A DNA stretch of 64,000 bases, taken from NCBI GenBank assembly GCA_963849325.1, contig CAWKHF010000007.1, positions 544,001-608,000 on the forward strand, given 5' to 3'. Both the position numbers and the translations under genes were made by a program. The notes under the pieces are model-generated. The model was not told the DNA's origin. It saw only the letters and a list, made by a program, of their open reading frames with translations, and did no database searches. Positions 1-45,591 of this stretch are shown here, piece after piece; positions within the stretch are counted from its first letter, which is position 1; every line of letters begins with the position of its first letter. The DNA comes from an uncultured Planctomycetota bacterium (lineage in GTDB: Bacteria; Planctomycetota; Planctomycetia; Gemmatales; Gemmataceae).

Positions 1-2478
1 ACCGGCAAGACGCTCGCCGCTTTCCTCCCGATCCTGACGCAGCTACTCCTATGCGGAAGGGAAGACAGACCCCATTCGGCATTGTCTTGCTTGTACGTCT
101 CGCCGCTCAAGGCACTGAGCAACGACACCTACCGGACGCTGGCGGGGCACGTCGAGGAACTGACGGCGTTATGGCCCGGCGCTCGCGTACCGCGTCTGGG
201 GGTGCGCAGCGGCGATTCGACGGCGACGGAGCGGCGGCGATTGCGCACGCATCCGCCGGACATCCTGCTGACCACTCCCGAGAGCATCGCGGTGCTGCTC
301 AGCCAGCCGATGGCCCGGCAACTGTTCGCCGGCCTGCGCTGGGTCGTGGTCGATGAGGTACACGCCCTGGCCGCGAGCAAACGGGGCGCGGACCTGGCCC
401 TGAGCCTGGAACGGCTGGCGCAGTTGTGCGGCGGACGACTCCAGCGCATCGGCCTATCGGCTACTGCCACGCCGCTCGTTGAGGCCGCGCGTTGGTTGAC
501 CGGCGAGAGCTGCGCCATTGCGCAAGCGAGAGACGGGACACCGTTGCAACTGACGATCCGCCCGCTGGAGGAGAGCGGACATTTCCTGGCCACGCTCGTC
601 GATCAGATCGCCCCGGAAGTGCGCGGCAACCGAGCGACGCTGATCTTCACGAACACGCGGCGGCTGACGGAGCAACTGGCCTGGGCACTGCGGCGCAACC
701 TGCCGGAGTTGCAAGAGCACATCGCCGTACACCATTCGTCGCTGGCGGCGGAGCGCCGCCGCGAAGTCGAGGAGAAGTTCAAGCAGGGGCACTTGCGGGC
801 GGTGGTCAGCAGCACGAGCCTGGAGCTGGGCATCGACATCGGCAGCATCGACCTGGCCGTGCTGGTGCATCCGCCCGGCGACGTGATCCGTCTGCTGCAG
901 CGCGTCGGCCGGGCCGGTCACGGGCCGGGTCGCGTCAAACGCGGCCTGGTGCTGACGGCGACCGAGGCCGAATTGCTGGAGGCCGCCGTCACCGCCGTCT
1001 CCGGCGAGGCGGGCCAGTGTGAACCGCTGCGCATCCCTGTCCACCCGCTCGACGTCCTGTGCCAGCACATTCTCGGCATGGCGGCGGTGCGGGCCTGGTC
1101 GGCGGACGAGATGTTCGATCTCGTCCGCCGCGCTGCCCCCTACCGCGATCTGTCGCGCCGCGATTTCGACGATTGTCTGGCCTATCTCGGTTGCCGGCCG
1201 ACGGCGGACGAGGCGGGTTGGTTGCCGCCGCGTTTGCAGGGTAGACCGGAGAGCTTCACCATCCTCGATCCGCGAACGGCCCGCTTGCTCCGCCGCAACC
1301 TCGGCACCATCCTCGCCGATCCCACCTACGTCGTAAATCGTGGAGGGTGGAGGGTGGAGGGTGGAGGGAAAAATGCCGCTTCTACCCTCCACCCTCCACC
1401 CTCCACCCTCCACCCGACCGACACCCTCCACCCGACCGACACCCTCCGCGTTGGCGAGGTCCAGCAGGCGTTCGCCGAGCGCTTGCGACCGGGTGATCGC
1501 TTTCTGCTCGATGGCCGCTGTCTGCAAGTCTGCTCGGTGCGTCCCGAAGAAAGTGTGCTGTACGTCGAGGAGGTGACCGGCCGGCCAGTGGTGCCCCGTT
1601 GGGGGGGCAATGGCTGGCCGCTGTCCTCGGAACTGGCTGGCCGTCTGTACCTGCTGCGCGTGCAGGCCGCGGAAGCTCTGCGCGATGGTCCGCACGCGCT
1701 GACCGAACTGCTGCGGCGCGATTTCCGACTGGATGACAAGGCCGTCGCCGTTTTGTCCGCGTTCTTCCAGCGGCAGGAATGCGTCAGTGAAATACCGGAC
1801 TCGGCCGGTTGCCTGGTCGAGATCGTCGCCCACGACGAGGGTGCCGACTACTATGTGCATACCCCCCTCAACCGTCTCGGCAATGACGCCCTGGCACGGG
1901 TGGCCGTGCATCGGCTGGCACGCGACCGGGGGCGCTCCGCCGACTCCATCGTGGCGGACCTCGGTTTCGCGCTGCTGGTTCGCGGCGAACCGCGGCCGGG
2001 CGAAGCGAGCGCGGAAATGCTGCGGGACCTGCTGGCCGCCTCGGGCTTCGAGGAAGACCTGGATGCGGCCCTGGAGGGAAGCGCCGCCGTGCGCGAACGC
2101 TTTCAATGCGTGGCGCAGACCGGACTGATGCTGCTGCGGCAGCCCCTGGGACGGAGGCGGCGCGTCGGCGGACGAGACTGGGGCGCACGCCGCCTCTTCG
2201 ACAAGGTCCAGGCGCGGGACGCGGATTTCGTGCTGCTGCGGCAGGCGCGACGCGAGGTCCGACGCGAACGGTGCGATGCCGCGGCGGCAAACTCCTACGT
2301 GCGAGACCTGGAACGACGGCCCTTGCGCTGCCGCCGGCTGGCCCAGCCGTCGCCGTTCGTCGAAGGTTGGACGCAAATCGGATCGGGGGCGGCCGCTAAC
2401 GTCGAGACACCGGCGGAGGCCCTTCTGCGTCTGCATGAGTCGCTGACGGAGGCAAGCAACGATGCGCGTCCTGAATGA
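1..2478 (+). CDS. lhr: Lhr-family ATP-dependent DEAH-box helicase (5' truncated by window)
   Basis: Frame 1 is open from base 1 (TGKT Walker A end). Motifs: YVSPLKALSND, LLTTPES, VVVDEVH, GLSAT, HHSSL, SSLELGIDIG, QRVGRAGH, HPLDVLCQH. Confidence 0.9.
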   Translation, partial: TGKTLAAFLPILTQLLLCGREDRPHSALSCLYVSPLKALSNDTYRTLAGHVEELTALWPGARVPRLGVRSGDSTATERRRLRTHPPDILLTTPESIAVLLSQPMARQLFAGLRWVVVDEVHALAASKRGADLALSLERLAQLCGGRLQRIGLSATATPLVEAARWLTGESCAIAQARDGTPLQLTIRPLEESGHFLATLVDQIAPEVRGNRATLIFTNTRRLTEQLAWALRRNLPELQEHIAVHHSSLAAERRREVEEKFKQGHLRAVVSSTSLELGIDIGSIDLAVLVHPPGDVIRLLQRVGRAGHGPGRVKRGLVLTATEAELLEAAVTAVSGEAGQCEPLRIPVHPLDVLCQHILGMAAVRAWSADEMFDLVRRAAPYRDLSRRDFDDCLAYLGCRPTADEAGWLPPRLQGRPESFTILDPRTARLLRRNLGTILADPTYVVNRGGWRVEGGGKNAASTLHPPPSTLHPTDTLHPTDTLRVGEVQQAFAERLRPGDRFLLDGRCLQVCSVRPEESVLYVEEVTGRPVVPRWGGNGWPLSSELAGRLYLLRVQAAEALRDGPHALTELLRRDFRLDDKAVAVLSAFFQRQECVSEIPDSAGCLVEIVAHDEGADYYVHTPLNRLGNDALARVAVHRLARDRGRSADSIVADLGFALLVRGEPRPGEASAEMLRDLLAASGFEEDLDAALEGSAAVRERFQCVAQTGLMLLRQPLGRRRRVGGRDWGARRLFDKVQARDADFVLLRQARREVRRERCDAAAANSYVRDLERRPLRCRRLAQPSPFVEGWTQIGSGAAANVETPAEALLRLHESLTEASNDARPE
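1340..1447. repeat. In-frame palindromic heptamer element (GTGGAGG)4 ... (ACCCTCC)4 plus short tandem duplication, inside lhr
   Basis: Directly visible inverted tandem arrays; translates as GGWRVEGGG...STLHPPPSTLHPTDTLHPTDTL. Confidence 0.9.
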
Positions 2479-3202
2479 CTGGTTGCTGACGCCGGAACGG
2501 GTGGCCGTGTATCTGCCCAGTGCGACGGCCGTCCTCGCCGACCCACATCTTGGCTACGCCGAGGCCCGGCGGCGCAGCGGCGAGGCAGTGCCGGACGATT
2601 CTCTCGACGAGCAACTCGCCGGCCTGTGCCGCGTGATGCGGCGTCACGCCGCGAAGCGCCTGGTCATCGCCGGCGACCTGCTCGAAGACGGCCGCTGTCA
2701 TGAGACGCTGACGGCCTTTCGTCACTGGTTGAGGCAGGCCGGTATCGAGTTGGCGGGCGTCGTGCCGGGTAATCACGATGCCGGTCTGGAAACGTCCTTG
2801 GCAACCTCGAAACTCCCTCTCTATCCCGACGGTTTTTCCCTCGGCGAGTGGAAGGTGATCCACGGAGATGGCGCCATCCCGGACGGTCGCGTGGTGCAGG
2901 GCCACGAACACCCCTGCCTGCGCTGGGTGCCAACGGCGCGAGCGGTTCGGCCGCGTTTTTTCCGCGACCGAACCGCTCCGGGCGTCCTTGACGGGGCTTG
3001 CTATCTGGCGGGTCCGCAGCGTCTGGTCCTACCGGCCTTCTCAGCGGAAGCGGCCGGTGTCAACGTCCTGTCCGTTCGGCGCTGGCGGTCGTACCGCTGT
3101 TACGTCCTCGCCGGGGAACGTGTGCTGGACCTGGGAGAATTGGCGACCCTCCGCTCCCGGCTCGCGGTCGCCGGCCGAGCGCCGCGCGTCGATTACCAGT
3201 AA
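2462..3202 (+). CDS. Lhr-associated metallophosphoesterase (calcineurin-like, MPE/PdeM-like)
   Basis: ADPHLG, IAGDL, PGNHD, IHGD and GHEHP motifs; overlaps the lhr stop. Confidence 0.85.
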   Translation: MRVLNDWLLTPERVAVYLPSATAVLADPHLGYAEARRRSGEAVPDDSLDEQLAGLCRVMRRHAAKRLVIAGDLLEDGRCHETLTAFRHWLRQAGIELAGVVPGNHDAGLETSLATSKLPLYPDGFSLGEWKVIHGDGAIPDGRVVQGHEHPCLRWVPTARAVRPRFFRDRTAPGVLDGACYLAGPQRLVLPAFSAEAAGVNVLSVRRWRSYRCYVLAGERVLDLGELATLRSRLAVAGRAPRVDYQ

Positions 3203-3919
3203 CGCAGCTTCCACCAGTCCTGCTTGGTCGCGGTCTTGCTGAACCACCAGAAACAGTCATCCCACTCCAGCTTCACCGAACGCCAGCCGAGGGGGATCTT
3301 GGGGAACGGGTAGCAAGGCCCGATGAATGGAAAGGCGTTGTACGGATACGCCAGCGGATACCCCACGCGCGAGTAATTGTTGTACGGCGCGTACGTCGGC
3401 CAGGCATAGGGCGGCATACGGGGCGGATTGAGGCTATGCGGCGCGGGTGGGCGCCTGGAAGATGGGCATCGCTTCCGGCGGCGCCTGACCCGGTGCGGCC
3501 TGCGGCGCGGGGTTCGCCGGGACCGGGTTGGCGGGCGGCAGACCTTGGAGCGTGCCCGGAACGCCGCCGGCCTGCACCGGCACGACCGTTTCGGCCACGG
3601 TCAAATGATCGACCACCCGCTCGACGCCGGCAACGCCCTGTACGAGTCGCACCACCTGTTCGCGCTGCCCGGCATCGGCCACGGCGCCGCTTAACTCGGC
3701 CAGGCCGTCCGTAAAGGAGATATCCACGTCGTAATGTCGCAAAAGGCCGCTCTGGTGGAGCTGGGCGGCGATGCGGTCGGCTGTCTGTTGGTTGGTGGCG
3801 GGAGCGACGTTCAGAGGCGAGGGTTCACACGCGGGCGGCTCCGCCGCTGGGGCCAGCCAGGGTTGCAACACCGACAACCCCAGGGCGAAGGCCAGGGAAA
3901 AACGGGCAGGAACGGTCAC
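3193..3919 (-). CDS. Secreted BON-domain protein with aromatic/Pro-rich C-terminus (indel near 3430)
   Basis: GTG start after an AGGAGG SD; signal peptide; BON-like DGLAELSGAV...VQGVAGVERVVDHL; continues into the 3193..3417 ORF. Confidence 0.7.
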
Positions 3920-4265
3920 GGCAACATCCTCCTGATGTAAGCGCATCGCAGACGATGGGTAACTATTCCCGATGAATGCCGTCCGGTCAAATCCGCGAAA
4001 TGATCGCCGTGCGATTCGTCGCCGCCCCGCGCCGGTCTCGGAGGAAAAAAGCTCCCGTCGAGCATCCTCGGCAAAAAGCCATCCGCAGCGCGAAATCCGC
4101 GCTCCTTGTCGAAGAATGGCTTCAAGAGGCTACTTACCTCATTGGTGGAAACGACTTGCAATCAGCCCTCGGCAAGGGAGTTGCCAGCGCACGCAAGTCG
4201 CCTCGAAGGATACGGAATAGAATACGCCGTAATCGTGCGTTCTTCTTCCGAAAGGAGCCATCCTC

Positions 4266-5972
4266 ATGCGATCCTTCCCGACTGCCATGACCCTGTTGGC
4301 GTTCTGCATTCCGGCGCTCGGCCAGGAGAACACCAAGACCTTTACGTACACGAAGACAAAGCAGGCCGACCTCGAAATGGTCGTCCACTTTCCTCCCGGC
4401 TGGAAGGAAACCGACAAACGGCCCGGTATCGTCTTCTTCTTCGGCGGCGGCTGGGAGAATGGGACGATCCAGGCGTTCGAGCCGCAGGCACAATACTTCG
4501 CCAGCCGAGGCCTGGTGACGGCACGGGCCGACTATCGGGTGAAATCTCGTCACGGCGTCACGCCCAAGGAATGCGTGGAGGATGCTCGGAGCGCGATTCG
4601 TTGGTTCCGTCAGAATGCGGCCCCATTGGGCGTCGATCCGGACAAGATCGTGGCGTCGGGCGGCTCGGCGGGAGGTCACATCGCTGCCTGTACCACCTTG
4701 ATGTCCGCGTCGGAAGGCAAAGACGAGAAGGTTTCGTGCCAAGCGAACGCACTACTCCTCTTCAATCCGGTACTTCGTTTCGGGCCGCGGTTGCTCAAGA
4801 GGGTGGACAACGACGAAGCGGTGGGCAAGGCGATCTCGCCGATCCTGTATCTGACCAAAGACAGCCCGCCCACCTTGCTGTTCTTCGGCACCGACGACTT
4901 CCTCATCAAGCAGGGCGAGGAATTCATCCAGCGCTCGAAGGAACTTGGGCACCGCTGCGAGATGTTCACCGCCGAGAAGCAACCGCACGCCTTCTTCCAC
5001 AAGTCGCCGTGGAAGGAAAAAACGCTGCAACGGGCCGACGAGTTCCTGGCCTCGCTGGGCTACCTTCAAGGGAAACCGACGATCGCGGTCCCCGATGCGA
5101 AGAAGGAGAAGCCGAAGGTGCAACCCGGGCCGAAGGTGCCGCCAACCTTCGAGAACGTGAAATACGGCCCGCATGAGCGCAATGTGCTGGACTTCTGGCA
5201 GGCCAAGTCGCAACAACCGACGCCGGTGCTGGTGTCGATCCACGGCGGCGGGTTCGTGGCGGGCAACAAGAGCGTCAGGCCGTTTATTCGGAAGGAATGC
5301 CTCGACAATGGCATCTCGGTCGCCGCCATCAACTATCGTTATTCGACGCAGGCCATCGCACCGGCACCGTTTCAGGACGGGGCCCGGGCCGTCCAGTTCC
5401 TTCGCTCCAAGGCGAAGGAATGGAACCTCGACGCGAAACGCTTCGCTGCCACGGGCGGCTCCGCCGGTGCGGGCATCTCGTTGTGGCTCAGCTTCCACAA
5501 GGACATGGCCGACCCGAAGAATGACGATCCGGTCCTGCGCCAGTCCACACGGCTGACGTGCCTGTTTGTCTTCGAGGGGCAAACGTCCTACGATCCGAGG
5601 TTCATTCGCAAGCTGTTCCCGGACAAGGACATTTACAAGATCGGCGCCCTGCAAAAACTCTTCGACTTCGACCCGAATCAACTCGACCATCTGCCGGCCG
5701 AGAAGTACAAGCTGTTCGAGGAATGCTCGCCGATCACGCACGTCACGAAGGACGCTCCACCCGTGCTGCTGATTTACAACAACCCGATTGACGCCAAGAT
5801 CACCAACCCGGGGATCGGCATTCACCATCCCCTGTTCGGCAAGGCGCTCAAGGAAAAGATGGACGCCCTCAAGGTTCCATGCGAAGTCGTTGCGGCGGGC
5901 AAACGGCTTGACGGCGGCATGCCGACAAGGACCATCGACTTCCTGCGAGAGCATTTGGGGATCAAGAAGTGA
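4266..5972 (+). CDS. Secreted tandem alpha/beta hydrolase (two esterase-like domains)
   Basis: Signal peptide; domain 1 FFGGGW/GGSAGG; domain 2 IHGGGF/GGSAGA; AAGGAG SD. Confidence 0.85.
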   Translation: MRSFPTAMTLLAFCIPALGQENTKTFTYTKTKQADLEMVVHFPPGWKETDKRPGIVFFFGGGWENGTIQAFEPQAQYFASRGLVTARADYRVKSRHGVTPKECVEDARSAIRWFRQNAAPLGVDPDKIVASGGSAGGHIAACTTLMSASEGKDEKVSCQANALLLFNPVLRFGPRLLKRVDNDEAVGKAISPILYLTKDSPPTLLFFGTDDFLIKQGEEFIQRSKELGHRCEMFTAEKQPHAFFHKSPWKEKTLQRADEFLASLGYLQGKPTIAVPDAKKEKPKVQPGPKVPPTFENVKYGPHERNVLDFWQAKSQQPTPVLVSIHGGGFVAGNKSVRPFIRKECLDNGISVAAINYRYSTQAIAPAPFQDGARAVQFLRSKAKEWNLDAKRFAATGGSAGAGISLWLSFHKDMADPKNDDPVLRQSTRLTCLFVFEGQTSYDPRFIRKLFPDKDIYKIGALQKLFDFDPNQLDHLPAEKYKLFEECSPITHVTKDAPPVLLIYNNPIDAKITNPGIGIHHPLFGKALKEKMDALKVPCEVVAAGKRLDGGMPTRTIDFLREHLGIKK

Positions 5973-6004
5973 CTGCGCCGCTGCGTGGAGGTCGAGGCAT
6001 GACT

Positions 6005-6530
6005 CGCCTCGTCCCCGCGCGGCTCGATCCGGTGCGGGACTGGATCGCGCACTACGATCGGTTCTGGGATGGCCACTTCCAACGGCTTCAGAATCATCTA
6101 ACCAAAGGGAACGAAAAATAACGGAAAGTATTCGAAGTGCCAAGCGCACCACCAAGCGGGCCGCGAAGAAGGCGGCCGCGCCGCCGGACTGCGCGGACAA
6201 GGCGGACGGGGAAAGTCGCCGTGCTCGCGAAGTCAGCGACGTGGATCAGAGGTCCGCCCCGCCGACCTACTTGATCGAGTGGGACCGGCACACGCTGGAC
6301 CACATGCACCCCGTCTACCGCTTCCTCGCTGTCGGCAAACGGCACCACGTCGTCGGCCCGTGAGTGCAGGATCGTCGTGTTCTGCTTCACGGTCCTGGCG
6401 GTCCCGTGCTTCCTCCAGGCAGGGCAAAGTAGCACCAGCGGGGTGTCGCCTCTGTCGGGGTTCCTGGCCACGGCCCCGCCCCGTGAAGAGCCGACGACAC
6501 GGCGGGCTGCGACCAGCGCCCGCTCGGTCG
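6005..6530. pseudogene. Mosaic of gene fragments (ArsR-like C-terminus, unknown protein fragment, opposite-strand alpha/beta hydrolase fragment)
   Basis: + 6005-6121 RLVPARLDPVRDWIAHYDRFWDGHFQRLQNHL; + about 6240-6321 VDQRSAPPTYLIEWDRHTLDHMHPVYR; - about 6322-6500 VVGSSRGGAVA...LVLLCPAW...ILHSRADDVVPFADSEE. Confidence 0.55.
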
Positions 6531-6680
6531 TCGCCTCGCAGGGGGCTACTCCCTGAGTAAAATAGGGCCTTAACTTACGGCGGAAGGCGGGTGCGCCCTC
6601 AGCCCTTCCCCCGGCCCCGTCAACGACGACGTTGGTGCAGCAATACATGCGCCGTCCCGGGCGTTTTGAGGCACGAACCG

Positions 6681-6743
6681 AATGTGGCGGCACGTTTGTA
6701 ACGTGCCGTACAATCCAACACGTTGAAAACGTGTTGCCACATT
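6681..6743. repeat. REP-like double palindrome (GTGGCGGCACGTT..AACGTG type)
   Basis: AATGTGGC...GCCACATT outer inverted repeat enclosing two CACGTT-N2-AACGTG palindromes. Confidence 0.7.
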
Positions 6744-7044
6744 TTGTTAGAGCCTCTTACGGTCGCGGCTCGGTTCCTTTCGTCAGGTGACACTTCGGAA
6801 ATTGACAAAGCTGTTAGATCGCAGGGAGAAGTTTCTTCTTTTTCTCCGCGCTTCGCGGTAGGTTGCAATCCGAATGGAGTTGCGGCGGCACTGGGCCGAC
6901 AAGAGGGGACGAAGGAGGACGGAAAGATCGCTATCTTCTTCATAATCATTCTCACCCCAATTATCCGATTAAATGCTACGTTCTCCCAGGCCCGATCGAC
7001 CGCCCGCCTGTTCGGATCGAAGGATGGGAAAAGGAGCCATACGG

Positions 7045-8773
7045 ATGGAACGATTCGGCAGGTTCATCCTTGTCCTCCCGCCTCTGCTGTTGCCGTGGTT
7101 TGTGTCGTTGCCCTGCCGCGCCCAGCCCCCGACCCCTGCGCCGACGATAACCGTCCCGACCCCTCCGCCAGCGGGCGGCGTTGCCGAGCGGACTCCGTTC
7201 CCTCAACAGCTTGAGACGACCGCGCAGCCAAGCCTGAAGTCTCCCCTGGAGGTGCCACCGCCGGCCAGCGGCGAAGTCGTGGAGATGAAACTTCCACCCC
7301 TGGAGCCGGGCGATCGGCGTTTTCCGATCAACCTGGCCACGGCCTTGCGACTGGCCGACGCTCGGCCGTTAATGGTGGCCGCCGCCCAGGCCAGCGCCTG
7401 GGTGGCCGAAGCGAAACTCCAGAAGGCCAAGGTCCTCTGGGTTCCCTCTTTTATGATGAACGCCGTTTACATGCGGCACGATGGCTACGGCCCAGACTTC
7501 AACGGCGGCATTAACATTCCTCAGGGCGAAAATGCTTTCGGGCAACCTGCGCCCGGCAGTTTTGGCAAACCCCTGAACCAGAACCTCAACTGGTTCTTCT
7601 CCGGTGTCTCGCTGTATCAGGCCGTCGCCATGACCGACGCGATTTTTCAGCCGTTGGCCGCGCGGCAAGATCTCAATGCCAAACGCTGGGACATTCAGAG
7701 TGCCAAAAATAATGTCCTGCTGGAAACCGCCTCCGCCTATTTCAACGTCCATCGCTTCCGGGGGCGTTACACGGGTGCCCTGTACTGCGTTGAAGAAGGC
7801 CGTAAGCTCCTGGCCAAGATTAACTCGTTGAGCAAGGATCTGGTGCCGAGCGTCGAGGTGGACCGTGCCCGGAACCTACTTGCCTTCCTGGAGGTGCAGG
7901 CCGTCTCCGACCGCGAAAACTGGCGCGTTGCCAGCGCCGATCTTACGCAAGTGCTCCGTCTCGATCCTCGGGCCGTGGTCGAACCCGTGGAAAACGATCA
8001 CATGCAGTTCACCTTGATCGACCCCGACCGTTCCCTCGATGACCTGATCCCCCTCGGCCTGACCAACCGCCCGGAATTGGCCTCGCAGCAAGCGCTCATC
8101 CAGGCGACCCTGGTACGCATCCGTCAGGAGAAGATGCGGCCTCTCTTGCCCTCCATTATCCTTTCGGGTTGGCAAACGCCGGGCGGCATGACGACCCAGG
8201 CCGGCATTTTCGCGACCGGCAACGGCGGGAAGCTTAATTTGTGGAGTTTCCGCGACGACATCAGCACGCAGATAGTCTGGCAAATGCAAAACTTGGGCTT
8301 TGGCAACGCCGCCTTAATCAAGAAGCGGCGCGGAGAGCAATCGCAGGCCACCGCGGAGTTGTTCCGCTTGCAAGACGCCGTCGCCTCGGATATTACCCAG
8401 GCCCAAGCAAAATTGCAATCGGCGGCCGCCCGCGTCGTCCAGGCCGAACGTTCGTTGCAAACGAGCCTTGTCACCTTCCAAAAGAACCTGGAGGGTCTGG
8501 GCCAAACGCGGCGATTTGGGAACCTCCTCGAATTGGTCTACCGGCCGCAGGAAGTGGTCTATGCCCTCAAGCTGTTGAAGCTGGCATTTGACGAGTATTT
8601 CGGCACGGTAGCGGAGTACAACACGGCGCAATTCGAGTTGTTCCACGCGCCTCGGTTATCCGGCGCGGGAAATCTCGTTCCTCCAGACGCCCGGCGAAAT
8701 CGCCCCCGTAGACACGTCGCGGCCCAATTATCTGCCCTCGGTCGGCACAGGACCGCCGCCAGCGACACGCTAA
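7045..8773 (+). CDS. TolC/outer-membrane efflux family protein, paralogue 1 (extra base near 8650)
   Basis: AAGGAG SD, signal peptide, FPINLATALRLA, two OEP-like repeats (AYFNVHR; NRPELA...). Removing one base restores the LGYPAREIS...GTGPPPATR tail of paralogue 3. Confidence 0.8.
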
Positions 8774-8777
8774 AAAA

Positions 8778-9012
8778 GTTCCGAGTTCGGAGTTCTGAGT
8801 TCGGAGTGAAAAACAACCGCTTGTTTCTTTCACTTAGCGTCTGTCCGGTAAGCCCCTCTCCCCCGGTACTCCGGGGGAGAGGGGTTGGGGTGAGGGGGTG
8901 TGCTTTCCGCGAGTTTCTCGCCCCCTCACCCCCAACCCCTCTCCCCCGAGTACGGGGGAGAGGGGGGCTTGTGGGACAGACTCTCAGAACTCAGAACTCC
9001 GAACTCCGAACT
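8778..9012. repeat. (GAGTTCT)n/(AGAACTC)n heptamer hairpin element, interrupted by an insertion
   Basis: Arms and central loop match the intact copy at 36706-36795. Confidence 0.85.
8837..8983. mobile_element. 147-bp MITE-like insertion with terminal inverted repeats, carrying a CCCTCTCCC/GGGAGAGGG palindrome pair
   Basis: Ends GCGTCTGTCC...GGACAGACTC (9/10 IR, 16/20 extended); flanked by TTA and TCA; absent from the sister element at 36706. Confidence 0.65.
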
Positions 9013-9032
9013 AGGAGATGGGAGGCTTTCGG

Positions 9033-10758
9033 ATGCGGCGATTTAGTAAGTTGTTGATCGTCCTTACGATCCTGCCGCTCTCGTGGATGGAGTCGTTGCA
9101 CGCGCAGAACCCGCCGTCGAGTGACGTCGAGCCGACTCTGCCCTCGCCGCGTTCCACGGAGGAGCGCCGACCGGGCGGCGTCACCGAGAAAACTCCCTTT
9201 CCTCAGCGGCTCGAACTGCCCGCTCAACCAGAAAAGAAATCGTCTTTGGAGCTGCCGCCGCCTCCGGGCGGCGAGGCGGTGAAGGTGGATTTGCCACCAC
9301 TGGAGCCAGGCGACCAGCGTTTTCCGATCAACCTGGCCACCGCCTTGCGACTGGCCGATGGCCGGCCGTTGATCGTGGCCGCGGCCCAGGCCAGCGCCTG
9401 GGTCGCGGAGGCACGTCTTCAGAAGGCCAAGGTTCTCTGGCTGCCGGACCTCAACCTCGGTTTCGATTATATCCGGCACGACGGTTACGGACCCGATACC
9501 ATTCGCGGCGTGAACATTTCGGCGGACCAACTCCAGGGAGGGCCTGGCGGCTTCGGTCGATCGCAGAACCAGAACATCAACTTTTTCTACGCCGGCGGCG
9601 CCACGTTCATCCTGCGAAACGCCACGGATATGATCTTCGAGCCGCTGGCCGCCCGGCAGAGGTTGAATGCCGCGCGATGGAATATCCAGACCGCCAAGAA
9701 CGATGCGTTGTTGATGACGTTGCGGGCCTACTTCAATGTCCACCGCTATCGCGGTCAATACACCGGGGCCATCGATGTCGTCCGCAAGGGCCGCAAGCTC
9801 ATTGAGGAGATAGCGGACCTGAGTAAGGAACTGGTTCCGGCCGTCGAGATCGATCGTGCCGCAACTTCGTCGCCGACCTGGAGCAGCAAGCCGTCCTGGC
9901 TCGCCAGTTCTGGCGTCGTTCCAGCGCCGATCTCACGCAAGTGCTGCGGCTCGATCCGCGCGCCGTGGTCGAACCGCTCGAACCGGATCACATGCAGCTG
10001 ACCCTGATTGACGCCGACCGTTCGCTCGACGACCTGATCCCTGTCGGCCTGACCAATCGCCCCGAATTGGCCGGACAGCAGGCGCAGGTCCAGGCGGCGA
10101 TCGGCGCATCCGTCAGGAGAAGCTGCGTCCGTTCCTGCCCGTCCTCAATATCAATGGCTTTCAAACGCCCTACGAACAGATCCAGGTGGGCGGGTTCGGC
10201 ATCGGCAACGGCGGCAAGCTGAACAACTGGAGCGGCCGCGAAGACGTCGCTCCGCAGGCGCTGTGGCAATTCGATGGGCTGGGAATGGGCAACCTGGCGA
10301 TGGTTAAGTGGCGCCGCGGCGAGCAGTCTCAGGCCACCGTCGAATTGTTCCGAGTCCAGGACGCGGTGGCCGCGGACGTAACACGGGCCCAGGCGCGGCT
10401 TCAGTCGGCGGCGGCGCGAACCGTCCAGTCCGAGCGCGAGCTGGCCGCAGCCCTCGAGAACTACAACGGCGTCGTCGCGGGGTTAAAGCAAACCAAGCGC
10501 TTTGGCAACCTTCTGAAGCTGGCCTTCCGGCCGCAGGAAGCGGTCTTCTCGCTCAAGCTGCTCCAGTTGGCCTACGACAATTACTACCTCACGGTCGCCG
10601 ACTACAACACCGCGCAATTCGAGCTATTTCACGCTCTGGGCTACCCGGCGCGGGAAATCTCGTTCTTCCGAACGCCAGGCGAGATTGCTCCCGTGGACAC
10701 GACGCGGCCCACTTTTTTGCCTGCGGTGGGCACAGGACCGCCGCCGTCACCGCGGTAG
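9033..10758 (+). CDS. TolC/outer-membrane efflux family protein, paralogue 2 (indels near 9860 and 10100)
   Basis: Three consecutive ORF pieces align collinearly with paralogue 3. Confidence 0.8.
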
Positions 10759-10762
10759 GAGA

Positions 10763-10828
10763 AGTTCTGAGTTCTGAGTTCTGAGTGAAAACAGAACTCA
10801 GAACTCAGAACTCAGAACTCAGAACTTT
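10763..10828. repeat. (GAGTTCT)n/(AGAACTC)n heptamer hairpin element
   Basis: Visible inverted tandem heptamers between TolC paralogues 2 and 3. Confidence 0.9.
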
Positions 10829-10843
10829 GGAAGGAGCCATGCC

Positions 10844-12649
10844 ATGATGGAACGGGTCAGCCGGACAGGGATCGCCCTGGCGGTCTTGCTGCTTCCGGGA
10901 CTGGGCAGAGCACGAGGCCAGGCTCCGCCGCCGGCGTCATCGCCCTCGGCGCCGGCTCCGGCCGCACCGGCGCGCGACGAGGCCGAGCGCCCGCTTCCTC
11001 CGCCGCGTCCGGTACCGTCCTCGGAGAAGGACAGCAGTCCGCCGTGGCAGAAGTCGCCCCTCGAACGTCTACCGCCTCCCGGCGGCGAGACCTTGAAGGT
11101 GGAGCCTCCGCCCCTGGCGCCCGGCGACCGGCGCTTCCCCATCAATCTGGCCGCCGCCTTGCGACTGGCCGACGGCCGGCCGATTCTCATCTCCGCCACC
11201 GCCGCCACTGTCTGGGTGGCCGAGGCGCAGCTTCAGAAGGCCAAGGTTCTGTGGCTTCCTACCATCAACTTCGCCGCCGATTACATCCGGCACGATGGCT
11301 ACGGCCCCGATTTGAATCGCGGCGTCAACGTGCCGCAGGGCGAAAACGCCCTCGGACAGAACGCGCCCGGCAGCCTGGGCAAGCCGCTCAACCAAAACGT
11401 CAACTTTTTCTACACCGGCGGCGGCCTCACGTACACGCCGTCGGAACCCAACTATTTCTATCAGCCCGAACCGGATCGACCGCAGTTGCCGGCGCCGCAG
11501 ATGGAATTGGTCACCAATATGATCTTCGAGCCGTTGCAAAAGCGGCAGATTCTCAATGCCAGTCGCTGGACCGTGCAGGCGGCCAAGAACGACTCCCTGT
11601 TCCTGACCGCGCGAAGCTACTTCGAGGTCCACAAGTATCGCGGTCAATACGCCGGCGCCATTGATGTCGTGCTGAAAGGTCGCCGACTGGTCCGGGAGAT
11701 CGCCGATCTGAGAGCGGACCTCGTTTCGGCCGTCGAGGTCGATCGTGCGCGCAGCCTGCTGGCCGACCTGGAGCAGCAAGCCGTCTCTGCCCGCGAGCAT
11801 TGGCGCGTATCCAGCGCCCGACTGTCGCAGATACTGCGACTGGACCCGCGTGCGGTGGTCGAGCCCATCGAACACGATCACTTGCAGATTACCTTGATCG
11901 ACCCCAGCCGTTCGCTCAACGACCTGATTCCCATCGCTCTAACCAACCGCCCCGAGTTGGCGGGCCATCAGGCGGAGATCCAGGCGGCGCTGATACGCAT
12001 CCGCCAGCAGAAGCTGCAGCCTTTCCTTCCCGCCGTTCTTATGAATGGCTTTCAAACGCCTTTCGAGTTAATCGAGGTCGGTGGGTACGGAGTCGGCGAT
12101 GGCGGCAAACTGAACAACTGGAGCGGTCGAGATGACCTCAGCCCGCAGATGCTGTGGATCTTTGAACAAATGGGCTTCGGCTACGTGGCAGACGTGAAGG
12201 AGAAACGCGGCATGGCGTCGGGCGCCATCGTCGAGTTGTTCAAGGTTCAAGACGCCGTTGCCGCGGACGTGACGCGATCCCAGGCGGACGTGCAGTCGAC
12301 GGCGGCTCGTGTCGTCCAGGCCGAACGCGAGGTGGAATCGGCCCTCATTAATTACAACGGCAACTACGAAGGCCTGAAGCAAACCAAGCGATTTGGCAAC
12401 GTGCTGGAGCAAGCCTTCCGGCCGCAGGAAGTGGTCTTCGCGCTTCAGCTGTTGAAGACGGCCTATGACAATTATTTCGCCACGGTGGCCGAGTACAATA
12501 CGGCGCAATTCGAGTTGTTCCACGCCCTGGGTTATCCGGCGCGGGAAATCTCGTACTTCCGGCGTCCCGGCGAAATCGCCCCGGTAGACACGGCGCGGCC
12601 TGGCTATCTGCCGCCGGTGGGCACGGGACCGCCGCCGGCAACCCGCTAA
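10844..12649 (+). CDS. TolC/outer-membrane efflux family protein, paralogue 3 (intact)
   Basis: 601-aa ORF with signal peptide, Pro-rich N-terminal linker and OEP-like repeats. Confidence 0.85.
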   Translation: MMERVSRTGIALAVLLLPGLGRARGQAPPPASSPSAPAPAAPARDEAERPLPPPRPVPSSEKDSSPPWQKSPLERLPPPGGETLKVEPPPLAPGDRRFPINLAAALRLADGRPILISATAATVWVAEAQLQKAKVLWLPTINFAADYIRHDGYGPDLNRGVNVPQGENALGQNAPGSLGKPLNQNVNFFYTGGGLTYTPSEPNYFYQPEPDRPQLPAPQMELVTNMIFEPLQKRQILNASRWTVQAAKNDSLFLTARSYFEVHKYRGQYAGAIDVVLKGRRLVREIADLRADLVSAVEVDRARSLLADLEQQAVSAREHWRVSSARLSQILRLDPRAVVEPIEHDHLQITLIDPSRSLNDLIPIALTNRPELAGHQAEIQAALIRIRQQKLQPFLPAVLMNGFQTPFELIEVGGYGVGDGGKLNNWSGRDDLSPQMLWIFEQMGFGYVADVKEKRGMASGAIVELFKVQDAVAADVTRSQADVQSTAARVVQAEREVESALINYNGNYEGLKQTKRFGNVLEQAFRPQEVVFALQLLKTAYDNYFATVAEYNTAQFELFHALGYPAREISYFRRPGEIAPVDTARPGYLPPVGTGPPPATR

Positions 12650-12715
12650 CCCGGCTATCCGTGTGGGACAGGATCTCGTCTTCTCATGACCCAGTTACCC
12701 CGGGAGGGGAAATCG

Positions 12716-13476
12716 ATGCTACGGCAACTCTCACTCCATATTGGCTCGACGGCCCTGGCCGCGACGCTGTCCCTGACGGCGGCGGCCCAGGAGTACTCCA
12801 ACGGCGGCGCTCTGCGCGCGGACGCAAGGAGGCGACCCTTACTCCGGTCGAAGCCTTTGGCGTCCACCCTCCTGGGCCCGACCCCGCGGACGCGAACCGC
12901 TGCTTCTTTCGCCGCTGGCGATATGTTTTCATCCCCTATTACGCTCCGTTATCGCCGACGGCGACTTCGGTTCGCTGGAAGCCATGGTGTTACTTCCCGC
13001 TCATGCCCTATTACACCCCGTATTACATTGGTTATTGTCCCCATCGCCTCCACCAGCAGAAACCGCCGCCCTACGGCTCCGACGGCTGGGGACAAGGCCC
13101 CATGCCCAATCCCAACGGTCCGAGCAAGCTTCCACTCAACTTTGGTGTCTACACGTCCGTCTTGCAGGACGATACCATCTTCTGGAACATGGGCGGCAAT
13201 GGTCTCGTTCCCTATGGCGTGCCCCGTCCTCCTCATGCCGGCTCCCCGGACCTCGTGGACCGAATCCAGGACACGCGCGGCGGTGGCGGCCTCTGTGCCC
13301 CTTCCCCCGGCGGCTTTCCCGTGACGGCCTGGAGCGGCGCGGCCGCTCCCACCATGACGCCCCCCGCGCAGATGCCGGTCGAGGAAGGCGGTCCCGAAAG
13401 CGACAAGGAGGAAAGCAAGAAGTCGGCCCCCGCGGAGACGCCTCCCATGGAGGAGAAACCGGCGCCGCCCGAATAA
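12716..13476 (+). CDS. Secreted Tyr/Pro/Gly-rich hypothetical protein (probable indel near 12820-12860)
   Basis: GGAGG SD then signal peptide MLRQLSLHIGSTALAATLSLTAAAQ; protein-like sequence continues in the frame of ORF 12661..13476. Confidence 0.55.
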
Positions 13477-13495
13477 CGCCTCGCCAGCGCTGGTA

Positions 13496-13538
13496 CGGCC
13501 AAACCCCGTGAATCGAATCGATCTACGGGGTTTGGCCG
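13496..13538. terminator. 14-bp stem hairpin between convergent genes
   Basis: CGGCCAAACCCCGT / ACGGGGTTTGGCCG perfect inverted repeat; no clear U-tract. Confidence 0.5.
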
Positions 13539-13619
13539 CCATCGTCAGGGGCAAGAAGGAACCGTTCTTGGGCGTTGCGATCGTGCCGAGAAGATCGAGA
13601 GATGACGCTGGCCGTTCGC

Positions 13620-14444
13620 CTATTTGAGGGTGAAGGGCACGTTGTTCAGATATTTGAGAGCGGCGGTCATCTGGGCGGTGCCCGAATTGACGTAGTTGAT
13701 GAGCCGAATGCTGCCGTCGCACATGACGAACGGCGAGCCGCCATCGTAGGGCGAGCCCCAGCCGTTGTTGCTGGTAGAGGTAGTCGGCAAGTCCTTGCTG
13801 ATGTTATTCGCGCCGCGGCTAGTGCCGCCGTAGCCACCTGTGAAGACGCCTTCATCCCAGCTGTTGGCGGTGACGTGGCTGTAGTATTTGGTGGGCATGG
13901 ACTTCTCGCCGATCAGGATAGTGTTGCTCGTACCGTTGGCCGACGTAATCACCGACAGCGTGACGTGGGTGGTGTATCGGTTGGTGAAACTGACTTCGTT
14001 GATGGCGTAATCGACGAGCGGTTGCCGCCCTCCCGTCCCGCCGGTGGAGGCGCCAATGCGTCCGCGAGCCGGATCCAGGTAGGTCTTGATGGGAGTAGCC
14101 GGGTTGGGCTGGGCGCCTTTTGCGATCAGGTTGTAGAGGTTCTGCTGCTCGACGTAGGGCAGGATCTGAAAGGCCCAGCAGAACATGTAGTAGTTCCCCA
14201 ACCCCGACGTTCCGCCGCCGTTGCCGCCGGCGTTGGCCAGCCAGCCATAGGTGTCATGGTAGTTCTGGCAGCCCAGGCCGATCTGCTTGAGGTTGTTGAA
14301 GCACTGCGAGCGAGCGGCGGCGATGCGGACCTTCTGCACGGCCGGCAAGAGTAGACCGATGAGGATGGCGATGATGGCGATGACCACCAGCAACTCGATC
14401 AAAGTGAACGCGCGGACGTGCTTGCGGAACACAAACCTCGACAT
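13620..14444 (-). CDS. DUF1559 prepilin-type N-terminal cleavage/methylation protein
   Basis: [54 protein letters not shown]-terminal MCDGSIR. Confidence 0.92.
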
Positions 14445-14578
14445 GGAGACCTCGCTTCGGGGCGGAACAGAGGATGACGCGGAAAAGCAGCAGAAAACGG
14501 AGTGCTCGCGTCCGTGAAACAACTCTCATTCTGTTTTCACGTTTTTCTCACTCTCTGTCAAGAATAAAGTGAGTAATT

Positions 14579-14602
14579 CATCATTAATTCTTCTTAATGA
14601 TG
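14579..14602. promoter_or_regulatory. Candidate operator: CATCATTAA-N6-TTAATGATG
   Basis: Perfect 9-bp inverted repeat in an AT-rich patch of the DUF1559/thrS divergent region. Confidence 0.45.
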
Positions 14603-14706
14603 CGGGGAGGTTCCCGGCGGACGCCGTTTCTCGTCGCCGTCCAGGTTGGGACGTAGGATAGCGGCACCCGGGGCGCTCGAACCCGGGTCGTCGAACTCGT
14701 GTCCCG

Positions 14707-14742
14707 TCGAGGGCAGGCCCGTTGTAGGGGCGTGCGTCTCGA
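14707..14742 (+). promoter_or_regulatory. thrS leader hairpin with Thr-anticodon-like loop (GUUGUAG)
   Basis: Stem TCGAGGGCAGGCCC/GGGCGTGCGTCTCGA closes a 7-nt loop with UGU at loop positions 3-5, 10 nt before the GGAGG SD. Confidence 0.55.
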
Positions 14743-14763
14743 TCCGACTTATGGAGGGAAGCC

Positions 14764-16971
14764 ATGCTAACTCTGAAACTCCCCGACGGCTCCGTGCGTC
14801 AGGTTCCCGAAGGCACTCGGCCGCGCGAGGTGGCCGCGGCCATCGGCAAACGTCTGGCCCAGGCCGCCGTCGCCGCCAAGGTCAACGACGTGGTCGTGGA
14901 CCTCGACCGCGAGCTGCCCGCTGATAACGGCGAGCAAGCGTTTCAGGTGCTGACCGACCGAGACCCGGAAGCGCTGGCCGTGCTGCGCCACAGCTGCGCC
15001 CACATCATGGCCCGCGCCGTGCTGCGCCTGTTCCCCGGCACGCAGCTGGCCTTCGGGCCGGCCCTGGAGAATGGCTTTTACTACGACATCGATTCGCCGA
15101 CGCCGCTCCGCGAAGAGGATTTTCCACGCATTGAGGAGGAGATGCGCAAGATCGTCGCCGGCGCCGAGCCATTCGAGCGTTTCGAGCGGTCCACCGGCGA
15201 AGCCCGCGAGTTGGTGCGCGATCTGGGCCAGGGTTACAAGGTCGAGCACATCGACGACGATTTGAAGCAGTACCCGACCCTCAGTTTCTATCGGCAGGGC
15301 GAATTCATCGACCTGTGCCGCGGCCCGCACATTCCCAACGCCGGCAAGGTCGGCGCCTTCAAGTTGCTCAGCATCGCCGGTGCCTACTGGAAGAACGACG
15401 CCTCCCGCAAGCAGTTGCAGCGCCTCTACGGCACCGCTTTCTTCAACCAGAAGGATCTCGACGCCTATTTGCATCAGCTCGAAGAGGCGAAGAAGCGCGA
15501 TCATCGCGTGCTGGGCAAGCAGCTCAAGCTGTTCACCATCAGTCCCGCCGTCGGCAGCGGTCTCATCCTGTGGATGCCGAAGGGGGCGACCGTGCGCGGC
15601 ATCCTGGAGAACTTCATCAAGGACGAACTGCTGAAACGAGGCTATCAGCCGGTGTACACGCCGCACATCGGCCGGCTGGAACTATACCGCACCAGCGGCC
15701 ATTTTCCCTACTATCGCGATGCCCAGTATCCTCCTTTGTTTCTGCACCAACTCGGCCAGACCGTGGACACCTGGCTGTCCCTGCTGGAGGCAGAACAGCT
15801 CCAGCCCGAGGCCGAGAAGGCTTTTCTCGGAGTGTTGGAGGCAGCGGGGACGGAGATGACGGACGCTCCGGGCGAGCCGAGGGCGACCGTGCAGCTTTAT
15901 CGGGATGCGGGCGAGGACCGGGCGAGGAAAATGGAGGCTCTGAAGGGCTGGCTCAACCGGCAGGAGGGCTACCTCGTCAAGCCGATGAACTGCCCGCACC
16001 ACATCCAGATTTACAAGGCCGAGCCGCGCAGTTACCGCGATCTGCCGGTGCGCCTCGCCGAGTTTGGCACGGTCTATCGTTTCGAGCAGACCGGCGAGCT
16101 ATCCGGCATGACGCGCGTGCGCGGCTTCACTCAGGACGACGCTCATCTGTTCATCACCCCCGAACAGACCGAGGTGGAGGTCGGCGCCAATATCGATCTC
16201 GTCCTGTTCGTGCTGTCGAGCCTCGGCTTGAACGATTACCGCGTCCGCGTCGGTCTGCGCGATCCCAAAAGTGATAAGTACGTCGGCCGTCCCGAGAACT
16301 GGGAGAAGGCCGAAAAGACCCTGCTCGAATTGGTCCAGTCGCGCGGCATGAACTACAGCGCCGAGGAGGGCGAGGCGGCCTTCTACGGTCCCAAGATCGA
16401 CTTCGTGGTGCGCGACTGCATCGGCCGCGAATGGCAGCTCGGCACGGTGCAGCTCGACTACAACCTGCCGGAGCGTTTCGGCCTGGAGTACGTCGGCAAG
16501 GATAATCATCCGCATCGGCCGGTGATGATCCATCGGGCGCCGTTCGGCTCGATGGAGCGCTTCATGGGCATCCTCATCGAGCACTTCGCTGGCGCCTTTC
16601 CGCTGTGGCTGGCCCCGGAGCAGGCCCGCGTCATGCCCGTCAGTGACCGTTTCCGCGAGTACGGCGAGCGCGTCGAGAACGAGCTGCGCTCGCAGGGCTT
16701 CCGCGTCAGTGGCGATTATCGCCCCGAGAAAATTGGTTACAAAATCCGCGAGGCGCAGCTGGAAAAGCTGCCGTACATGCTGGTCGTCGGCGAGAAGGAG
16801 CAGAGCGCCGGCACGGTGTCGGTGCGCGACCGCGTGGAAGGCGACCGCGGCGCGATGCCCGTCGCGGAACTCGTCCATCGTCTCGCCGAAGAAGTGAGAG
16901 AGCGAAGCATCCGTCAGGTGAGCACCGCCAGCGCCGGCCTGGCGGACCGCGGCGCCCAGTTCGCGGATTGA
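14764..16971 (+). CDS. thrS: Threonine--tRNA ligase
   Basis: TGS domain, RHSCAHIMA, DLCRGPH, RDHR, KPMNCPHH, FTQDDAH, AFYGPKID, IHRAPFGSMERF. Confidence 0.98.
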   Translation: MLTLKLPDGSVRQVPEGTRPREVAAAIGKRLAQAAVAAKVNDVVVDLDRELPADNGEQAFQVLTDRDPEALAVLRHSCAHIMARAVLRLFPGTQLAFGPALENGFYYDIDSPTPLREEDFPRIEEEMRKIVAGAEPFERFERSTGEARELVRDLGQGYKVEHIDDDLKQYPTLSFYRQGEFIDLCRGPHIPNAGKVGAFKLLSIAGAYWKNDASRKQLQRLYGTAFFNQKDLDAYLHQLEEAKKRDHRVLGKQLKLFTISPAVGSGLILWMPKGATVRGILENFIKDELLKRGYQPVYTPHIGRLELYRTSGHFPYYRDAQYPPLFLHQLGQTVDTWLSLLEAEQLQPEAEKAFLGVLEAAGTEMTDAPGEPRATVQLYRDAGEDRARKMEALKGWLNRQEGYLVKPMNCPHHIQIYKAEPRSYRDLPVRLAEFGTVYRFEQTGELSGMTRVRGFTQDDAHLFITPEQTEVEVGANIDLVLFVLSSLGLNDYRVRVGLRDPKSDKYVGRPENWEKAEKTLLELVQSRGMNYSAEEGEAAFYGPKIDFVVRDCIGREWQLGTVQLDYNLPERFGLEYVGKDNHPHRPVMIHRAPFGSMERFMGILIEHFAGAFPLWLAPEQARVMPVSDRFREYGERVENELRSQGFRVSGDYRPEKIGYKIREAQLEKLPYMLVVGEKEQSAGTVSVRDRVEGDRGAMPVAELVHRLAEEVRERSIRQVSTASAGLADRGAQFAD

Positions 16972-16984
16972 AGCAGAAGAAGAC

Positions 16985-17123
16985 TTTCACCACGGAAAAC
17001 ACGGAAAAAAGACAAAGACAACACAAAGAAAAGGCAATAAAGGAGATAAAGAGAACATTAAATATCTCTTTTAATGTTTTCTTTTGTCTTTTTTCCGTAC
17101 TTTCCGTGTTTTCCGTGGTGAAA
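16985..17123. repeat. Nonamer (CACGGAAAA)n long hairpin with AT-rich core
   Basis: Inverted arms; sits between convergent thrS and ligA; sister copy at 19485-19632. Confidence 0.85.
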
Positions 17124-17128
17124 TGTCT

Positions 17129-19463
<2,335 letters not shown>

Positions 19464-36705: not shown

Positions 36706-36795
36706 AAGTTCTGAGTTCTGAGTTCTGAGTTCTGAGTGAAAAACAATACCGCTTGTTTCTTTCACTCAGAACTCAGAACTCAGAACTCAGAACTG
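36706..36795. repeat. (GAGTTCT)4/(AGAACTC)4 heptamer hairpin element, intact
   Basis: Four heptamers per arm around the loop GAAAAACAATACCGCTTGTTTCTTTC. Confidence 0.92.
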
Positions 36796-45483: not shown

Positions 45484-45591
45484 AAGTTCTGAGTTCTGAG
45501 TTCTGAGTTCTGAGTGAAGAAAGACAAGAGATAGGAGACGGAGGACTGTTGTGTTGGGCACTCAGAACTCAGAACTCAGAACTCAGAACTT
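45484..45591. repeat. (GAGTTCT)4/(AGAACTC)4 heptamer hairpin element
   Basis: Fourth copy of the family, with a different loop sequence. Confidence 0.92.

Follow-up and report, generated by a model that had tools for sequence, protein, structure and literature searches.

A conserved, ordered triplet of TolC-like outer membrane factor genes in a planctomycete, probably serving an RND efflux system encoded elsewhere in the genome

Gene content of the array

Three tandem genes for TolC-like outer membrane factors (OMFs), here called T1, T2 and T3, and a following gene for a small secreted protein (gene 4) are found in a 64,000 nt stretch of DNA from an uncultured planctomycete of the family Gemmataceae (assembly GCA_963849325.1, contig CAWKHF010000007.1, positions 544,001 to 608,000). 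This whole stretch is referred to as the window. Unless a C7 coordinate is given, positions are those of the 64-kb window (544-608 kb of contig C7 of this genome, G000). The layout of T1-T3 was taken from the list of open reading frames (ORFs), three-frame translation and DNA alignment of the copies. The genes are:

7045..8773, + strand: T1, TolC-like outer membrane factor, position-1 orthologue; 575 amino acids (aa) read through; Pfam OEP match
9018..10758, + strand: T2, TolC-like outer membrane factor, position-2 orthologue; 580 aa read through; first piece just under the Pfam OEP cut-off
10844..12649, + strand: T3, TolC-like outer membrane factor, position-3 orthologue; intact, 601 aa; AlphaFold2 (AF2) model, Foldseek comparison
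12716..13476, + strand: gene 4, secreted Pro/Tyr/Trp-rich protein; signal peptide and conserved core in different frames

An earlier reading, made from the sequence alone, had described three co-oriented TolC-family paralogues with a Pro-rich N-terminal linker and a near-invariant tail. Translation agrees on both counts, giving proteins of 575, 580 and 601 aa when the breaks in the frames are read through (X at the breaks). Each starts with a signal-peptide-like segment, has the Pro-rich linker (~70-90 aa) and ends in the near-invariant tail. An alternative start for T2 is the ATG at 9033. T3 and T1 share 59% identity. An insert peculiar to T3, previously put at 25 aa, is real and occurs in all 12 copy-3 orthologues aligned, but is closer to 20 aa: the S2-H3 junction has 24 residues in copy 3 and 4 in the other copies, and the insert occupies T3 residues about 199-222. 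T1-T3 also have an extra loop of 36 aa between S1 and S2, and their conserved tail, 38 aa long, is left without structure by AF2. A NodT-type lipobox, with its invariant N-terminal Cys, was not found in the T1-T3 set; a Cys does precede the R-A-Q site in many copies, and it is missing from T2 and T3 of the window and from two further copies.

Fold and family assignment

The AF2 model of T3, built from a 27-sequence alignment, has the topology of TolC, with a predicted local distance difference test (pLDDT) score of 68 overall and mostly 80-93 in the helices. Paired strands followed by 67-residue helices occur twice, forming the two structural repeats that characterize the TolC fold. A Foldseek search with this model gave 43 PDB matches at E <= 0.001, and among the matches listed all are TolC-type channels, including TolC, OprM, OprN, CusC, CmeC, MtrE and VceC. 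The match to TolC 1ek9_A had an E-value of 9.2e-14, a template modelling (TM) score of 0.75 by target and 14% identity, and the TolC entries gave TM scores of 0.72-0.78 by target over 470-490 aligned columns. A sequence search of the PDB with T3 returned no matches at E <= 1. In Pfam, the OEP family (PF02321, gathering score 22 bits) was matched by T1 in two stretches at 45.1 bits, above the cut-off, and in a genome search both T1 repeats were recovered at 28.7 and 24.3 bits, while the first T2 piece scored 20.2 bits, just under the cut-off. Judged by the modelled structure, T1-T3 belong to the OMF fold as remote members.

Orthology, copy number and selection

The array is present in six of the ten other genomes of the same genus, and was not found at the orthologue level with this query in G004, G007, G008 and G010. 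T1 is 74-83% identical to the position-1 copies of relatives. In an IQ-TREE phylogeny of 33 sequences (seven position-1, eight position-2 and eight position-3 rows), positions 1, 2 and 3 each form one clade, with support of 100/99, and T2 and T3 are sisters (96/94). The same three position clades, with 20, 16 and 20 rows, were recovered by FastTree from 123 sequences that took in 59 further public loci, 7 of which are contigs already among the G-genomes. The check proposed with the earlier reading, whether the three positions form orthologous clades, comes out in its favour in both trees.

A run of three copies is found in 16 of the 59 public loci and, when read by clade, the order is always T1-T2-T3; order and content are also fixed in the window and in the first array of G002. 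Shorter runs in this clade all stop at contig edges except in L077, where an ORF for a resistance-nodulation-division (RND) permease abuts a copy 3 that is without its first ~185 residues (L077:9326-12024). In several metagenome-assembled genomes (MAGs) at least two arrays are present, located on different contigs; the two or three that are complete each retain all three copies. At L088:1260-5240, gene 4 is followed directly by T1 and T2, as if two cassettes stood in a row. Gene order and copy number are thus constant within the clade but not beyond it. Isosphaeraceae-labelled and other relatives have two copies, including the cultured Singulisphaera sp. PoT and Tundrisphaera sp. TA3, so that three is not universal; the family as a whole ranges from one to three copies, and in several lineages of the 123-row tree copies from the same genome are sister to each other.

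Median dN/dS values were 0.143, 0.174 and 0.168 for positions 1, 2 and 3 (55 pairs each), with one position-2 pair an outlier at 1.75, and on these sequence estimates each position is under purifying selection. In L045 and L047, synonymous divergence between the paralogues of one genome (0.42-0.78) is lower than the orthologue median of 1.1, even though the tree places the triplication first; gene conversion or codon bias is a possible cause.

Other small features were seen in the relatives. In the Isosphaeraceae-type loci L066:13390-14112, L067:11606-12412 and L095:12053-12751, a small ORF with the N-terminus P-x-L-E-x-L-E-x-K-x-L-L lies between two OMF genes, and several loci of this type have two adaptor genes beside one RND gene. 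A 227-aa ORF near the G009 array (L030:15829-16509) matches Pfam Tox-URI2 at 27.9 bits (cut-off 20).

RND pump, adaptor and regulator genes

An RND permease gene (called at >=50% identity in the public loci) lies within 6 kb of the array in 9 of the 16 triple loci, four of the 16 being cut by contig ends, and an adaptor gene is found in eight of those nine. Considering all 59 loci, an RND gene occurs in the available flanks of 38. Pfam and NCBIfam searches identified an ACR_tran permease (1140-1213 aa) and an HlyD_D23 / RND_mfp adaptor adjoining the arrays of G009a, G002, G003 and G001, and in G003 and G005 a permease and adaptor also adjoin a more distant array with two copies. In G006, genes for a response regulator (RR) and a histidine kinase (HK) come after gene 4. 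The linkage to an adaptor and an inner-membrane transporter that is expected of an OMF is accordingly seen in the relatives and not in the window.

RND matches on C7 are confined to 195-199, 216-219 and 379-382 kb, and Pfam searches of the 12 ORFs at 1-18589, which did not cover the rest of the window, showed no adaptor or ABC gene. The sequence-only reading was right that no RND gene accompanies the array within the window, but its picture of a system without a pump does not survive, given the RND and adaptor genes beside the relatives' arrays and an orthologous set in G000 itself, on the same contig as the array and 330 kb away:

C7 213041-214506: HK
C7 214493-215159: RR
C7 216297-219552: RND permease
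C7 219863-221065: adaptor (membrane fusion protein, MFP)

This HK-RR-RND-adaptor layout is the arrangement expected if a T1-T2-T3-gene 4 cassette had left from between RR and RND. A trace of the former junction is found upstream of T1:

6924..6995, + strand: remnant, on the T1 side, of the divergent spacer that ancestrally separated RND and T1; 73 nt align at 76.7% identity with the T1-proximal end of the L045 spacer

The RND-proximal part of the spacer matches DNA beside the G000 RND gene on C7, with 73.6% identity over 129 nt for L045 and 74.5% over 267 nt for L047. Because one part of the spacer matches the array side and another the RND side, the nucleotide alignments indicate that the ancestral RND-T1 spacer is split between two sites in G000 and that the separation of array and pump is secondary.

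For the regulator pair, found next to the array in G006 and next to the RND gene in G000, the top-scoring models were those of heavy-metal RRs (220.6 bits) and HKs (266.6 bits), and neither score reached its curated cut-off. The RND permease of G009 reached 351.6 bits with the heavy-metal efflux (HME) model TIGR00914, which has a cut-off of 701, and 448.2 bits with the generic multidrug model, a higher score that is also below its cut-off. The motif in transmembrane segment 4 (TM4) is VDEATV..EN, which we take to provide two acidic residues as in multidrug pumps and not the CusA or CzcA pattern.

Frame changes and assembly quality

The three paralogues had been taken for full genes, which is correct for T3, a single open frame; as sequenced, T1 and T2 are broken, and the earlier reading had read through the breaks. 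T1 has a 1-nt insertion near 8650, after FELFHA, which puts the last 40 codons, including the conserved tail, in another frame (stop at 8771-8773), while T2 has lost one nucleotide near 9859 and another near 10103. When the three copies are aligned as DNA, each break proves to be a single-base insertion or deletion (indel), and by our reading of the alignments all three sit at short C or G runs. A fourth 1-nt indel shifts the frame of gene 4 at 12809-12820, making four frame changes within 6.4 kb.

The background rate of such changes was estimated by comparing ORFs of the relatives' short-read assemblies with G000 by tblastn, using 27 non-array genes with an orthologue of >=65% identity. Eight of these control genes were affected, with 22 frame changes in 35.7 kb (0.62 per kb), a density equal to that of the array (3 in 4.8 kb, 0.62 per kb). 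One conserved control gene, 78% identical to its orthologue, has six frame changes and the RND orthologue has seven; ACR_tran genes of G000 likewise show up as numerous frame-separated pieces. Examples of genes with such single-base indels are C12:325224-328140 and C7:216297-219550. In the relatives' short-read assemblies every array copy is a single ORF, save copy 2 of G005. All the indels are single-base changes, stop codons and further lesions are lacking, and when read through the proteins show 75-80% identity to their nearest orthologues over 558-568 columns. Since the density in the array equals that of the 27 control genes, assembly error is the most likely source of the four 1-nt indels, and T1-T3 would therefore be functional genes. 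An incidence of ~0.6 frame-breaking indels per kb of coding sequence affects all ORF-based readings of this genome.

Two cases of disruption were seen elsewhere. Copy 2 of L034 (G005:C207) carries an in-frame TAG just before the LEPGD motif, at a Leu codon of the near-identical G001 copy, in a gene otherwise undamaged. L036 (G002:C3:303848-309284), a second triple array, is in 12 frame-separated pieces, and L035, the first array of the same contig, is intact.

Gene 4

The gene 4 product is ~240 aa long, and an alignment of 14 sequences has 63 invariant columns; in the window the signal peptide is read from 12716 in one frame and the conserved core from ~12820 in another. Of the 16 triple loci, 11 have the gene after T3, three do not have it and two are cut by contig ends; no two-copy locus was seen to carry it. 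Neither Pfam nor NCBIfam gave a match, and the predicted cleavage site has no lipobox Cys. An AF2 model from the 14 sequences has a pLDDT of 50.6 and almost no secondary structure. An atlas search with gene 4 returned only unnamed clusters at 0.85-0.86, with structure rows at TM <= 0.26, and a complex prediction of the T3 core (85-601) with gene 4 (1-160) returned no verdict, with scores of 0.00 and 0.00. The suggestion that the next gene encodes an accessory protein draws on a single observation, its co-location with T3, and we infer such a role from position alone.

Intergenic repeats

Both spacers between the OMF genes contain repeats resembling repetitive extragenic palindromic (REP) elements:

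8778..9012, no strand assigned: composite REP-like palindrome in the T1-T2 spacer, with outer GAGTTC(T/G) heptamer arms around a second G/C-rich inverted repeat
10763..10827, no strand assigned: REP-like hairpin with GAGTTCT heptamers in the T2-T3 spacer

The same REP-like repeat family also occurs at about 36713-36788 and about 45491-45584 of the window. Hairpin-like heptamer pairs number 57 in the 8.16-Mb genome, and none was found at the 12 relatives' loci checked. The hairpins were considered as array-specific regulators and rejected, as they belong to a genome-wide repeat family that is absent from the relatives' arrays. A promoter and terminator scan of 5900-14800 found 1 and 6 sites, no excess over shuffled sequences.

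Interpretation of the locus

The locus probably encodes the outer membrane factors of an ordinary RND efflux system whose pump genes lie elsewhere in the genome, a reading built on the observed fold, positional orthology, purifying selection, RND and adaptor linkage in relatives and split spacer. T1, T2 and T3, anciently triplicated OMFs of TolC type, together with the small secreted gene-4 protein, would form a four-gene cassette that provides an RND-type tripartite efflux system with its exit duct in the outer membrane. The permease, the periplasmic adaptor and a CusRS-like two-component regulator that flank the cassette in relatives would be its partners, and a rearrangement with its breakpoint in the divergent RND-T1 spacer would have placed 330 kb between them and the cassette in this genome, where the system would work in trans. 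The tolC gene of E. coli works in trans with acrAB. The three OMF proteins would presumably be made together; conservation of the helical barrel and the equatorial parts among the paralogues would allow co-assembly, and paralogue-specific differences would be carried by the strand-2 region, the copy-3 insert and the surface loops.

Several observations weigh against this reading. The window has no RND match, so that coupling to a pump is here inferred from the relatives, and three of the 16 triple loci (L052, L054 and L063) are without an RND gene despite >=6 kb of sequence on both sides. The RND permease falls under every curated NCBIfam cut-off. T3 scores 20.6 bits against Pfam OEP, below the 22-bit cut-off, and neither T3 (30.1 bits) nor T1 (27.8 bits) approaches the 225.15-bit cut-off of NCBIfam TIGR01844 (type_I_sec_TolC); by these scores T1-T3 are not members of that subfamily. 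The stop codon in T2 of G005 is a further adverse point, as is the small chance that the frameshifts at T1, T2 and gene 4 are real.

Within an RND efflux system, the three OMFs could be assembled in more than one way. Three separate homotrimeric channels, with or without chance mixing, would provide alternative ducts differing in surface loops and the copy-3 insert, and we rate this as nearly an even prospect. Such channels may serve several of the many RND pumps of the genome, where ACR_tran matches occur at roughly 20 places against about 10 other OEP loci, or may diversify exposed surfaces. Divergence between paralogues peaks in the N-linker, the S2 strand, the insert and the S4-S5 loop region, copy number varies across the family, and L051 and L059 have two RND-adaptor pairs beside one triple. 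We know of no characterised OMF that is not homotrimeric. Separate homotrimers give no account of why no copy has been lost from any complete array, nor of the fixed order. On this arrangement the locus would be an ordinary efflux system with spare channels.

An obligate 1:1:1 heterotrimer, with T1, T2 and T3 in fixed cyclic order around one asymmetric duct and gene 4 as a fourth, accessory subunit, is a more tentative proposal that we consider doubtful. It would equate three genes with three protomers and fits the invariant order and content of the 16 run-of-three loci, the window and the first array of G002, the purifying selection on each positional clade, the retention of all three copies in the complete arrays of multi-array MAGs and the single RND and adaptor beside three OMF genes in most such loci. 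Segments S1, S2, S4-S5, H7 and the copy-3 insert differ between paralogues yet are kept among orthologues (identity between paralogues against that among orthologues is 0.38 against 0.80 for S2, and 0.04 against 0.67 for the insert), and the first four of these segments presumably include protomer-protomer edges, going by TolC topology. However, only 10 of 601 columns are fixed within each paralogue and different between them, T1 being the odd one in 7, with no obvious complementary change; this is too few for paralogue-specific conserved residues to be informative as a signature of a fixed interface, and they were set aside. Relatives with two copies, and lineages in which same-genome copies are nearest kin, suggesting repeated duplication or gene conversion, also argue against an obligate trimer, as does the TAG in T2 of G005. 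The parts of a review that deal with these channels describe OMFs, TolC among them, as homotrimers, and name heterotrimers only for the RND permease MdtBC. If a heterotrimer does form, it would be the first asymmetric outer membrane factor: one face of the duct would be set apart by the copy-3 insert and the gene-4 protein, and relatives with two copies would have a 2:1 channel, in some cases alongside two adaptors.

It is improbable that the locus is decaying, with real indels and T1, T2 and gene 4 as pseudogenes in this organism. Four frame changes within 6.4 kb, the distance of the cassette from its pump and the second array of G002, which has >=9 frame changes beside an intact one, would suit decay, but the same indel density is seen in 27 unrelated conserved genes, one of them with six changes, and the damage is limited to single bases at short runs, without stops and with identity to orthologues maintained. 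The other proposal of the sequence-only reading, a surface pore working without a pump or a novel export system, with the next gene as its cargo, is very improbable: the lack of an RND match in the 64-kb window and a gene 4 that is secreted, conserved and without predicted fold are outweighed by RND and adaptor genes next to the array in most relatives, by the orthologous set in this genome and by the spacer split that marks the separation as secondary, and orthologues beside ordinary RND and MFP genes are what that reading had itself named as counting against it.

Comparison with known systems

T1-T3 share with TolC, OprM and CusC the predicted fold, the two OEP repeats (recovered for T1) and, in relatives, RND and adaptor genes as neighbours. 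T3 is only 12-16% identical to the OMFs of solved structure, and T1-T3 differ from TolC, OprM and CusC in the added Pro-rich linker (70-90 aa), 36-aa S1-S2 loop and conserved 38-aa tail, and in being three paralogues in a fixed order; to our knowledge, known tripartite systems have one OMF gene.

The likeness to CusCFBA and CzcCBA lies in the regulator pair, which scores best with heavy-metal RR and HK models, and in the adaptor, which matches the CusB/HlyD barrel-sandwich domain. The differences are scores that all fall below curated cut-offs, the TM4 motif of the RND permease and the lack of any CusF-like gene among those seen; assignment of the pump to heavy metals was not adopted, given the low scores. 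In E. coli, YbjP is a lipoprotein partner of TolC, according to the titles of PDB entries 9v52 and 9tg4, and so a small envelope protein associated with an OMF. Gene 4 could have a YbjP-like role by analogy, although it lacks a lipobox Cys and a predicted fold and shows no detectable likeness to any named protein.

Paralogous subunits within one tripartite pump have precedents. TriABC has two different adaptors (TriAB) in one pump. The heterotrimeric RND permease MdtBC is a second case, as described in the relevant part of a review. In both, the heteromer is an inner-membrane or adaptor component and not the OMF, and among the titles and abstracts returned by literature searches no report of a heteromeric OMF or of planctomycete triple arrays was found. 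With mixed-subunit pumps known for the permease and the adaptor, the T1-T2-T3 cassette is a candidate for the OMF level, and, anciently fixed beside a single pump, it offers a concrete and testable candidate for an asymmetric exit duct. The system as a whole is of a known kind, an RND tripartite pump, and its unusual part is the conserved, ordered triplication of the OMF together with gene 4.

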